This document shows, one piece after another, positions 2 through 3,455 of a stretch of DNA of 24,159 bases (positions within the stretch are counted from its first letter, which is position 1; each line of letters opens with the position of its first letter). Source of the DNA: Pseudomonadota bacterium. GTDB lineage: Bacteria; Pseudomonadota; Gammaproteobacteria; Acidiferrobacterales; UBA6901. Below the pieces are notes generated by a model that was given only the letters and a program-made list of their open reading frames with translations, had not been told where the DNA came from and did not search any database. A program made the position numbers and the translations under genes. Where the stretch lies: NCBI GenBank assembly GCA_021834245.1, contig JAKBDW010000439.1, positions 1 through 24,159 of the forward strand. The letters are read 5' to 3'.

Positions 2-300
2 CTGTGCGAGCTCGTCGAGAAGGGAACAGACACCGATCTCGTACGCGAAATGATCCAGCACGTCATGGACATGGACGTGGAGAACTTGTGCGCCGCTGCC
101 TACGGCGAGCGCACCGCCGAGCGGCAACACAAAACAGCCGCAGCGGCTACCGGGAACGCCTCTGGGAGACCCGCGCCCGCGCGGTAAGTGTCAAGATCCC
201 GAAGCTGCGCTGCGGCAGCTATTTCCCGCCGTTCCTCGAGCCGCGCCGAACCGCGCCGAACCGCGCCGAGAAGGCCCTTGCCGCCGTGATCCAGGAGGTC
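2..300 (+). pseudogene. IS256-family transposase, N-terminal part (frameshifted; interrupted at 300 by an IS110 element)
   Basis: Frame 2 reads LCELVEKGTDTDLVREM...AYGERTAER, then shifts to NSRSGYRERLWETR...KIPKLRCGSYFPPFLEPRR...AEKALAAVIQEV, typical of IS256 (Mutator) transposases. It continues in frame at 1652. Confidence 0.9.
241..269 (+). repeat. 10-bp tandem repeat CCGCGCCGAA (about 2.9 copies) inside the IS256 pseudogene
   Basis: ccgcgccgaa ccgcgccgaa ccgcgccga is read directly. It adds extra residues to the usual EPRRxAEKAL motif. Confidence 0.85.
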
Positions 301-318
301 TTCTATGAACAGCTCCCC

Positions 319-552
319 CTTTGCAAGGCTCCCGATTGTTCGGCACTCAAAGTTGGCTGCTGCTATCTATCCGACCTGTGTGCGGGCACAACAGCCCTGG
401 CCTTGATGGGATCCGCGGACCCACGCCCATATACATCCACGAGGTCGATGCCTCGAGGCCTCCTTCGGGCTCAGTGGGTCCCGGTCCAACCTGATGTGCC
501 ATCGTAATCGCTCGCCTACGCAACCATGGGAAGGGTTATGTGACCGGGGCGG
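319..552 (-). ncRNA. Candidate bridge/seekRNA in the 3' non-coding end of the IS1111-type element
   Basis: About 235-nt non-coding region between the transposase stop and the right sub-terminal IR, where IS1111-group guide RNAs are encoded. It contains an 8-nt exact match to the predicted circle junction. Confidence 0.6.
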
Positions 553-1586
553 TTACACGACTGCGGCCCCGGATCGATAGCCGTTGAAGCGCTCGCCACG
601 AGTAAGCAACGCCCAGATCGTGTGGGCGTTCTTGTTCGCGACCGCGACGGCAACCACGTTCACGGGTCGGCGACGCAGGAGCTCATCGAGCCATGGTCGA
701 GCGCCGTTCGCGCGTACCCGATGCCAGCGCATCACGGCCTGGGCTCCGTGCACCAGCAGTCGGCGCAAATACCCGTCCCCGCGCTTCGAGATCGACCCGA
801 GACTGGGTTTACCGCCTGTGGAGTGCTGCTTGGGCACCAGTCCCAGCCATGCCGCAAAATGGCGGGCGCGGCGGAACGCGTGGATATCTCCCACCGAGGC
901 GACCATGGTCGAGGCCGTGATCGGCCCGACGCCCGGGATCCCCGCCAAGCGGCAGCTCGCATCGGTGGCACGGTGCCAGCGCTCAATCGCCCGCTCGAGA
1001 TGGGCAATGCGATCCTGGATTTGCCTCCATTGCTCAATCAGCAGCTCGATGAGCGCCATCACCGTAACGGGTACTCGTTCCGGTCCTGCGAGGTGTTCGG
1101 CTACCTGGCGTGTCAGGGTCGAGGATCCCACTCGGAGGTAAATACCGAATTCTGCGAGTTGGTACGAATCGAGTTACCGAGTTGCGTCCGTTGCGAATTG
1201 AGTAGTTCTCGTGATCGATGCAGTGTTAGGGCGGCCTGCTGTTGGACGGCCTTGATTGAGACGAAATGCATCGTCGGCCGCTGCACCGCTTCGCAGATCG
1301 CTTCCGCGTCCCTCAAATCGTTCTTGTTGGTCTTGAGGTACGCCTTCATGTAGCGGGCGGGAATACGCTTGCAGGAGTGCCCGAGCTTGCCGAGCTCTCG
1401 GGCCCAGTGATGGGCCGCTCCGCACGCTTCAAAGCCGATCACGCAGGGTGGAAGGTTTGCGACGAATCGTAGCAGCTCCGCGCGGCGAAGCTGTCGCCGG
1501 ATCTTCGGTCGACCGGCCCCGTCGACGCCATGGACGTGAGAGACGTTCTTGGCAATATCAAAGCCGATCACTTGTATCTCAGATAT
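553..1586 (-). pseudogene. IS110 DEDD transposase/recombinase, frameshifted near 1165, probable start codon mutated to ATA
   Basis: Motifs IGFDIAK, IGFEACG, KNDLRDAEAI, then after a 1-nt shift QLAEFGI...IPGVGPITA...GLVPKQHSTGGK...GDGYLRRLLVHGA. GAGGAG RBS lies 7 nt before an in-frame ATA at 1586. Confidence 0.9.
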
Positions 1587-1651
1587 GCCGACTCTCCTCA
1601 CGTTGATGGGTAATACACTGTCGCAGAAGTCAGGGGAGCTGTTCATCCCGA

Positions 1652-2585
1652 TATATCCGGGGCGTCTCGACCCGTTCGATCGACGAGCTGGTCAAGGCAA
1701 TGGGGATGTCCGGGATCTCGAAGAGCCAGGTCAGCCGGCTGTGCGGGGAGATCGACGAACGCGTCAACGCGTTCCTCGATCGGCCCATCGAGGGCGACTG
1801 GCCGCGGATCGATGCGATCTACGTGAAGTCGCAAGAGGCCGGCCGGATCGTGTCGAAGGCCGTAATAATTGCCGTCGCCGTAAACACTGAGAGCGTGCGT
1901 CAGGTGCTTGGTCTGGCTGTCGGTCCAAGCGAAGCGGAGCCGTTCTGGAGGGACTTCTTGCGCTCCATGACACGCCGTAGCCTTCGAGGGGTCAAGCTCG
2001 TCATCTCCGACGCCCACGCGGGCTTGAAGGCCGCCGCAGCCAAGGTCCTGAACGCCACCTGGCAGCGCTGCAAGGTTCACTTCCTGCGCAACGCGCTCGC
2101 ACACGCCGGCAAAGGGCAGCAGCAGATGGTGCTCGCCGCGATCAACACCGCGTTCGCACAGGACTCCTTCGAGACCGTGAGCGCGCAGTGGCGGGTCGTC
2201 GCCGATCAGCTGCGCGCCAAGCTGCCGAAGCTCGGAGAGCTCATGGACGCTGCTGAAATCGAAGTGCTGTCGTTCATGGCGTTCCCGAAGACGCACTGAA
2301 CGCAAATCCACAGCACCAATCCCCTCGAGAGGCTCAACGCCGAGGTCAAGCGTCAAACCGACGTCGTCGGAATCTTCCCCAACGACGCCGCCGTCATACG
2401 CCTGGTCGGCGCGCTGCGGCTCGAGTAGAACGACGAGTGCCAACTGCAGTGCCGATACATGCAACTTGAGGGACTGGCGTCCCTGAGTGACAATCAAACC
2501 GCCAGGCTGTCCGCGGTGGTCAGCTGAGCACGAGTCGAACCTGACCAAGATCGACGACTCGTACACCACTCGCCGGGACGCGATC
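1652..2585 (+). pseudogene. IS256-family transposase, C-terminal part plus right end
   Basis: YIRGVSTRSIDELVKAMGMSGISKSQVSRLC...IDAIYVK...LVISDAHAGL...WQRCKVHF; nonsense codons at 2297 and 2426; native stop at 2525-2527; IS256-like end TACACCACTCGCCGGGACGCGATC ending near 2585. Confidence 0.9.
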
Positions 2586-2772: not shown

Positions 2773-3306
2773 ATGAATTGCTATTCGTTCAATGGAAAGA
2801 GACCGCACGTTGCCAGCGATGCATTTGTGCATCCAACAGCGGTTCTAATTGGGGCCGTCAATATCGGTAGAAAGTGTTATATCGGTCCATGTGCCTCGCT
2901 GCGCGGAGATTTTGGGTGTATCAGAATTGGTGCGGGCGCGAATGTTCAAGACAATTGCGTAATTCACACGTTTCCGAATGAGGACGTGGTGCTCGAAGAG
3001 GATGCTCATATCGGACATGCGGCTGTACTTCATGGATGCACCGTATGTTGCAATGCTTTGGTGGGTATACAATCCATCGTCATGGATGGAGCGCGTGTGG
3101 GCCGTGAAAGTATGGTTGGGGCGGGCTCGTTCGTGCCGGCGCGATTTGAGATTCCGCCGCGAACTCTCGTGATCGGAAATCCGTGCCGCATTGCTCGGCC
3201 GTTAAACGACGACGATATTCGTCGGAAGAGTCACGGCACGAGCTTATATCAAGAACTCGCACAACAGTGTCTCGCATCTTTACAGCCCTGTACGCCAACT
3301 CGGTGA
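2773..3306 (+). CDS. paaY: PaaY/CaiE-type gamma-carbonic-anhydrase-family hexapeptide-repeat protein
   Basis: FVHPTAVLIG, ASLRGDFG, QDNCVIH, HIGHAAVLHGC with three Zn-type His residues, and a C-terminal helix KSHGTSLYQEL as in PaaY. GGAGG RBS at 2762-2766. May be somewhat shorter at the C-terminus than E. coli PaaY. Confidence 0.85.
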   Translation: MNCYSFNGKRPHVASDAFVHPTAVLIGAVNIGRKCYIGPCASLRGDFGCIRIGAGANVQDNCVIHTFPNEDVVLEEDAHIGHAAVLHGCTVCCNALVGIQSIVMDGARVGRESMVGAGSFVPARFEIPPRTLVIGNPCRIARPLNDDDIRRKSHGTSLYQELAQQCLASLQPCTPTR

Positions 3307-3455
3307 CGAGTGGTCAGGCTGTAACAAGTACAAGTAATTGGAGAGAACAACTCTGGTTGCGTTGAATTTCGAGTGGTGAAGTTGGGCGAGCGCGCTCGGC
3401 TTCACCCCCTGACGCGCGTTGAACGTGACCTTCGAATTCAGAATCATTTCGCTCA

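Follow-up and report, generated by a model that had tools for sequence, protein, structure and literature searches.

Predicted guide RNA with target- and donor-binding loops in a decayed IS1111-group insertion sequence lying in an IS256-family transposase gene

The element, its insertion site and its relatives

The window analyzed here is a stretch of 24,159 nt (contig JAKBDW010000439.1, positions 1–24,159, assembly GCA_021834245.1, class Gammaproteobacteria). It contains an IS1111-type insertion sequence of 1351 bp on the minus strand (positions 301..1651 or, equally, 302–1652, one base being ambiguous), antisense inside an IS256/Mutator-family transposase gene. The frame flanking the element belongs to the Mutator/IS256 family (Pfam PF00872, E 7e-61), and excision of 301–1651 in silico restores the IS256 reading frame QEV-YIRG, with the hyphen at the insertion point. 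The insertion is seamless and lacks a target duplication, which corresponds to the site-specific insertion of the IS1111 group. The hallmarks of this group are subterminal inverted repeats, short extensions, and a long non-coding region after the gene (Siddiquee et al., 2024, PMC11187229). The element has a 14-bp left subterminal inverted repeat ATGAACAGCTCCCC (1633..1646) with the 7-nt left extension TATCGGG (1653–1647, Hall convention), and a right subterminal repeat GGGGAGCTGTTCAT (305..318) followed by the 3-nt right extension AGA (304–302), all on the minus strand and within the limits of the group (repeats of 7–17 bp, extensions of 7 nt on the left and 3 nt on the right). The non-coding region downstream of the stop codon spans 252 nt (552–301) and is longer than the distance from the left repeat to the family start codon, approximately 60 nt here as in relatives.

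Read in the element sense on the minus strand, the left target half CCGGATATA (1652..1660) covers codons YIR of the IS256-family transposase, antisense, and the right target half GACCTCCT (293..300), codons QEV; the IS256 target motif in this sense is GGATGTA CGCCTCCT. The circle junction predicted from the excision of 301–1651 is the 21-mer GTTCATAGAATCGGGATGAAC. The element is single-copy in the 601-contig assembly, and the host IS256 is likewise found only at this locus; hence, the uninterrupted target site rests on the reading frame. The host transposase gene is itself a pseudogene, with frames shifting upstream of position 190 and a stop at 2297–2299, past which homology apparently goes on in another frame. 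A 10-bp unit (CCGCGCCGAA/G) is present in three tandem copies at 241–270.

The DEDD transposase gene of the element (553..1646, minus strand) is broken, with its start codon lost and a frameshift. PF01548 (E 2e-9) and PF02371 (E 5e-28) were identified on two overlapping ORFs, one on either half of the gene split by the frameshift, and these halves are 83–90% identical to the intact 344-aa transposase P0001. The family start codon ATG is replaced by ATA at 1586–1584, and the frameshift falls between the residues aligned to residues 141 and 153 of P0001 (about 1165–1113). The left end TCGGGAT is unique to this copy, as CTGGGAT or ATGGGAT is found in each of the eight close relatives whose left end can be read; at the level of the extension, TATCGGG is seen here vs TACTGGG or TAATGGG in these eight.

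The family retains a predicted promoter at the circle junction, composed of TTGCAA or TTGGCA, a 17-nt spacer, and GATACT, GATAAT, or TATAAT. The –35 box TTGCAA and the 17-nt spacer are present in this copy, and the –10 box is GATATC, without the final T. The two adjacent differences in the left extension weaken the pairing with the donor guide, spoil the –10 box of the junction, and create an 8-nt match considered below. No internal promoter or terminator was found in the element, in agreement with the published model of an RNA processed out of the transposase transcript. Judging by the lost start codon, the frameshift, and the variant left end in its sequence, this copy is dead.

A protein search yielded 21 intact transposases (344–349 aa, 65–90% identity to the C-terminal half), and a metagenome scan with the alignment of these transposases yielded nine close loci (L111–L118 and L131), whose proteins are 74–90% identical to the transposase studied. 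Each of the nine elements interrupts an IS256-family transposase gene at one and the same codon position and has the same, antisense orientation, so that insertion into such a gene is seen in ten copies out of ten, the window included. These insertions are independent, as the hosts of the relatives are 76–87% identical to that of the window. Flanks of this kind were seen in none of approximately 100 more distant loci of the family. A scan of genome contigs retrieved only relatives with identity of at most 50%, the closer ones coming from the protein search and the metagenome scan; a DNA search in 60 related genomes produced matches of about 65–70% within the transposase gene only, and these never reached the non-coding region. 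The closest relative, L111 (1796–2645), has an IS256-like left flank and a right flank (TAGGCTGGGACTG...) unlike IS256, with a weak second IS256-like match further on; this right flank probably results from a later rearrangement adjoining the element.

A conserved RNA fold downstream of the transposase gene

An earlier note on this DNA placed a guide RNA with donor- and target-binding loops in the non-coding end of the element. Folding of this end and a search with our own covariance model (R1) reveal a conserved RNA, about 165–200 nt long and predicted at 523–321 on the minus strand. Its structural domain (321..523) was delineated using RNAalifold, pair counts, the covariance model, and a duplex test of the outer helices. 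The non-coding regions of nine full-length sequences have a mean column identity of 84%, with indels of 1 and 2 nt. The structure obtained with RNAalifold and refined by hand comprises stems P1 to P7 and a second arm, with compensatory changes in P5. Stem P1 is formed by 523–514 with 329–321, stem P2, by 510–504 with 339–333, and the core described by R1 spans 503–341, all on the minus strand.

R1 has 96 full-length matches at 91 loci, always immediately downstream of the transposase gene and on the same strand. Among the cells assigned to pairs in the R1 alignment, 87.1% are paired, compared to 65.7% after shuffling and 32–43% with slid partners, changes on both sides are observed in 37 of 41 base pairs, and there are 783 double-change cells vs 229 after shuffling; these counts are inflated by the fitting of the alignment to the model structure, but the margin over the controls is still large. 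Stems P1 and P2, lying outside R1, are also conserved, with a mean z of –3.1 for the flank duplex energies and 83% of the values below –2. The helix closing the donor loop is weak throughout the family (64% paired, no covariation). A search of positions 1–2400 against Rfam 15 at a permissive threshold gave two chance-level matches elsewhere and none in the RNA region.

Two further features of this region were observed. The sequence CCTTCC just after the transposase stop codon (530–545) is able to form pairs with the run of G in the right subterminal repeat (311–317), and a similar outermost pairing is seen in several relatives; the RNA could in this way mask the right subterminal repeat. At locus L105, a second full-length R1 match (3282–3433) follows the first by approximately 85 nt, and the flank of the first element contains another copy of the beginning of that element's non-coding region, an arrangement that looks like an insertion beside a solo or partial copy. 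This recalls the stand-alone ssr9 copies reported for ISPpu9 (PMC12288879).

Guide strands and their correspondence to targets and element ends

For the identification of guide strands, 83 elements (63 non-redundant) were anchored on their subterminal repeats, and each loop column was compared to each junction position and to permuted pairings. Four clean diagonals emerge between guide columns and junction positions in the 63 non-redundant elements. The permutation z-scores given below are inflated by shared ancestry, which does not affect the base-by-base identity across at least six end types and many targets; such identity, holding across subfamilies with different ends and targets, cannot be produced by shared ancestry. 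The loop strands of the relatives change both with the target and with the element ends, two of the properties by which seekRNAs and bridge RNAs are recognized.

Two of the strands correspond to the insertion site. The right-target guide AGGAGGC (458..464, minus strand), forming the 5' strand of the target loop, complements the top-strand sequence of the right flank, GCCTCCT in relatives and ACCTCCT here, leaving six pairs out of seven. Its diagonal has z of 4–8, with the register varying by subfamily, and the longest complementary run averages 6.30 with the own flank vs 3.01 with permuted ones (z 24.6). Inside the close clade this guide and its target hardly vary, and the assignment is supported there by the 7-nt complementarity and the signal of the family; most relatives have the register 2 nt closer to the core. 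The left-target guide GGAUGUAU (431..438, minus strand), the 3' strand of the target loop, is identical to positions –12 to –5 of the left junction, GGATATAT, bar one G for A, a possible G-T wobble with the bottom strand. Its diagonal has z of 5–9, the match to the own junction is 5.60 of 9 vs 3.06 for permuted ones (z 17.9), and its T/C position tracks the target in seven of eight clade elements.

The other two strands, located in the donor loop, correspond to the element ends. The left-end (right-donor) guide AUCCCAU (406..412, minus strand), the 5' strand, complements the left extension and the start of the repeat, ATGGGAT in the family and TCGGGAT here, where five of the seven positions pair. 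Its covariation has z of 6–11, with 5.49 of 6 for own ends vs 4.80 for permuted ones (z 9.7); elsewhere in the family, AUCUCAU pairs with ATGAGAT (L105), and AUGUCAU, with ATGACAT (L009). The right-end (left-donor) guide AUAGAUAG (363..370, minus strand), the 3' strand, has the same sequence as the final base of the right repeat, the extension, and the three bases that follow. These read ATAGATA in relatives and ATAGAAG here, as one T is missing. The diagonal of this guide has z of 8–11, with 6.29 of 7 for own ends vs 3.82 for permuted ones (z 15.5), and the match is 7/7 in L043, L120, L140, L040, and L143, with five different sequences. Overall, the donor guides of the window copy have a degraded match to its own ends (4/7 and 4/6), and this poor fit looks like decay.

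Two additional candidate guides were considered and rejected. The segment AGGTC (377–373) attracted attention as a right-target or handshake guide, as a C-to-T change in the window matches a G-to-A change in the target; in the family it forms a covarying stem, where the change yields a neutral G-U pair. The variable segment after P2, similar to the flank in a TCGAGA-like stretch, is too weak as an extended left-target guide.

Taken together, the fold, the covariance model, and the guide diagonals make it very probable that 523–321 on the minus strand encodes the guide RNA of an IS1111-group insertion sequence, with a Y-shaped fold bearing a target loop and a donor loop. The outer stems P1 and P2 and a stalk of P3 and P4 carry the two arms of the Y. 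The internal loop of the first arm (P5, P6, and P7; 481–417) would be the target-binding loop, equivalent to the short seekRNA, its 5' strand pairing with the right half of the insertion site (top strand) and its 3' strand, having the sequence of the left half, with the bottom strand. The second arm would form the donor-binding loop, whose two strands, in the same geometry, would read the left end and the right end as they meet in the excised circle. By analogy with published work on ISEc11, ISPa11, ISKpn4, and IS621, the RNA would be cut from the transposase transcript, and the promoter would form only at the circle junction, with the –35 box TTGCAA in the right end and the –10 box across the joint. 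The same analogy suggests that the RNA binds the DEDD recombinase and brings the circle and the target together, strand exchange taking place near a TA core. The window copy is a fossil, its left end pairing less well with the donor guide and spoiling the –10 box, and its right junction lacking one T.

The earlier note assigned the loops differently, taking the 8-mer AATCGGGA (337–330) as the donor-binding loop and GACCTC (446–441), CGGATA, and AGGTC (the latter two in AGGTCGGATAG, 377–367) as target-binding segments. All these strings are indeed found at these positions of the minus strand, and the 8-mer coincides with the middle of the 21-mer GTTCATAGAATCGGGATGAAC, thus extending across the joint in the seamless circle of this copy. 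The match is real, but it does not exceed chance: a junction match of at least 8 nt, on either strand, arises in 9.2% of 5000 first-order Markov randomizations of the non-coding region, a probability of about 0.09. It also depends on the left end TCGGGAT, found in this copy only. Five of its eight bases, AATCG (337–333), form the 3' strand of P2 and pair with CGATT (510–506), and GGA (332–330) is a 3-nt internal loop; a U:A pair of P2 in the window is C:G in L111 and L113, which have GATCGGGA at this position of the RNA and no match to their own left ends. More generally, the left ends of relatives differ, yet the sequence at the position of the 8-mer is similar or unrelated to it. No difference between own and permuted junctions is seen for the homologous segment in the 63 elements (3.95–4.06 vs 3.98–4.10), the window being the single top outlier. 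The shorter strings, being matches of 5–6 nt, are too short to be meaningful on their own. GACCTC overlaps the 3' strand of P7 (CCTCG, 444–440) and two loop bases, and it is nearly invariant in relatives with differing targets. AGGTC (377–373) belongs to the distal stem of the donor arm and covaries with its pairing partner and not with the flanks (GAC with GUC, GCU with AGC across the family), while CGGATA consists of the conserved CGGA and the start of the right-end, that is, donor, guide. As these segments lie in stems and do not covary with donor or target in homologs, this assignment of loops, to which we give very little credence, fails by the refuting conditions that the note itself set, and the RNA stands; the 8-nt match has arisen by chance within a stem of the RNA.

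Matches of the second arm to the element ends might also be by-products with no function as guides. The short ISEc11 seekRNA, described as carrying target matches, is reported to suffice for the movement of a mini-IS (Siddiquee et al., PMC11187229), and the weakness of the helix closing the donor loop points in the same direction. This reading is disfavored, as a by-product is not expected to track the end extensions, and both strands of this arm change in step with the variable bases of the extensions, keeping their register, between subfamilies whose extensions differ (AGA, GTA, ATA, ACA, and CAT at the right end; ATGGG, ATGAG, ATGAC, and ATGCT at the left end); we consider it improbable. 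Even more doubtful, to the point of being scarcely credible, is that the conserved 3' region, instead of being an RNA gene, serves the transposase as a cis-acting DNA site or encodes a small protein. The region is highly conserved and contains ORFs of 57–58 aa (321–494 or 347–523), but relatives differ in it by indels of 1 and 2 nt, not multiples of three, stems change in a compensatory manner (783 double-change cells vs 229 after shuffling), and the variable positions are those that match the flanks.

Comparison with known systems and choice of target

The element belongs to the IS1111 group, has a guide RNA with two loops of the type reported in 2024 (PMC11187229, PMC11208160, PMC11208158), and is not a system of a new kind. 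As the mechanism has been known since 2024 and this copy is dead, the finding is confirmatory and unsurprising. It adds a natural bridge RNA or seekRNA with four readable guide strands and about 90 relatives to a system relevant for genome engineering. It also demonstrates that short look-alike matches of a non-coding end to the junction can mislead, the true guides having emerged only from the in-register comparison of relatives.

Similarly to the elements with known IS1111 seekRNAs (ISEc11, ISPa11, ISKpn4, and ISPst6; PMC11187229), the element has a DEDD transposase with the C-terminal domain PF02371, subterminal repeats with extensions of 7 nt on the left and 3 nt on the right, a long downstream non-coding region, and no target duplication; the promoter formed at the circle junction of these known elements has a predicted counterpart in the family of the present one, with an incomplete –10 box in this copy. 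The order of the matches is also the same, as in IS1111 seekRNAs the top-strand match is located 5' of the bottom-strand match (PMC11187229). On the other hand, protein identity to the named enterobacterial members retrieved here is only 38–50%, the target is an IS256 coding motif vs REP, attC, or a Tn21 repeat, and the copy described here, with its predicted RNA, is inactive.

An element that targets another mobile element has a precedent in IS4321/IS5075 (Partridge and Hall, 2003, as cited in PMC11208160). R1 matches the 3' non-coding region of IS4321 where this element is inserted in a Tn21 inverted repeat (E 6e-8). At the same guide positions, the RNA of IS4321 has AAAACGGAA, complementary to the flank TTCCGTTTT, and ATAGATTC, identical to the right junction. 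The differences are a transposase identity of 38%, a poor alignment of the target arm, and a target that is a terminal repeat and not a coding sequence.

The bridge RNA of IS621 from the IS110 group (PMC11208160, PMC11208158) also has two binding loops, each with one strand pairing with the bottom strand of the left half and the other, with the top strand of the right half, as here. The guides overlap a short core in both cases, and the left guides run past it, recalling handshake guides. In contrast to the present element, in IS621 the RNA is encoded upstream of the gene, the left guide occupies the 5' side of each loop (the order is reversed here), and a CT core is combined with repeats of only 2–3 bp. 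Moreover, the donor strands are at or near a three-way junction here, while in IS621 they form a simple internal loop.

The IS256 coding motif as the target of the whole clade means one mobile element programmed against another. We tentatively suggest, though the odds are somewhat against it, that the clade is a specialized parasite of insertion sequences, with a guide RNA aimed at the IS256 motif Q-E-A/V followed, across the insertion point, by Y-I-Q/R-G, in the antisense orientation. If so, a tolerance of G-T wobbles would allow a single guide to fit synonymous or near-synonymous variants of many IS256 relatives. A literature search for IS1111 or IS110 elements aimed at IS256 genes revealed nothing specific. 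That such targeting is an adaptive strategy, either a safe harbor or competition, is a conjecture.

The junctions themselves have some irregularities. Of nine clade members, four (the window copy, L114, L116, and L117) have a right junction that is one nucleotide short (AGA-A-...), vs AGA-TA-G/C/A in the other five, and the longer form is also required by the host reading frame. Alternative core registers did not provide a consistent model for the short form. Observed in four of nine independent insertions, it could, as a conjecture, be a variant outcome of strand exchange when the core bases differ. The right-target guide of L116 carries UU, pairing with the remaining AA. Core base 2 is A at the left junction and G at the right one in L042, L043, L044, and the ATGGTC subfamily (L028, L029, L032, L006, and L023), core base 1 always agreeing between the two junctions of these elements. 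Both left guides of L043 spell the version of the core found at the right junction.
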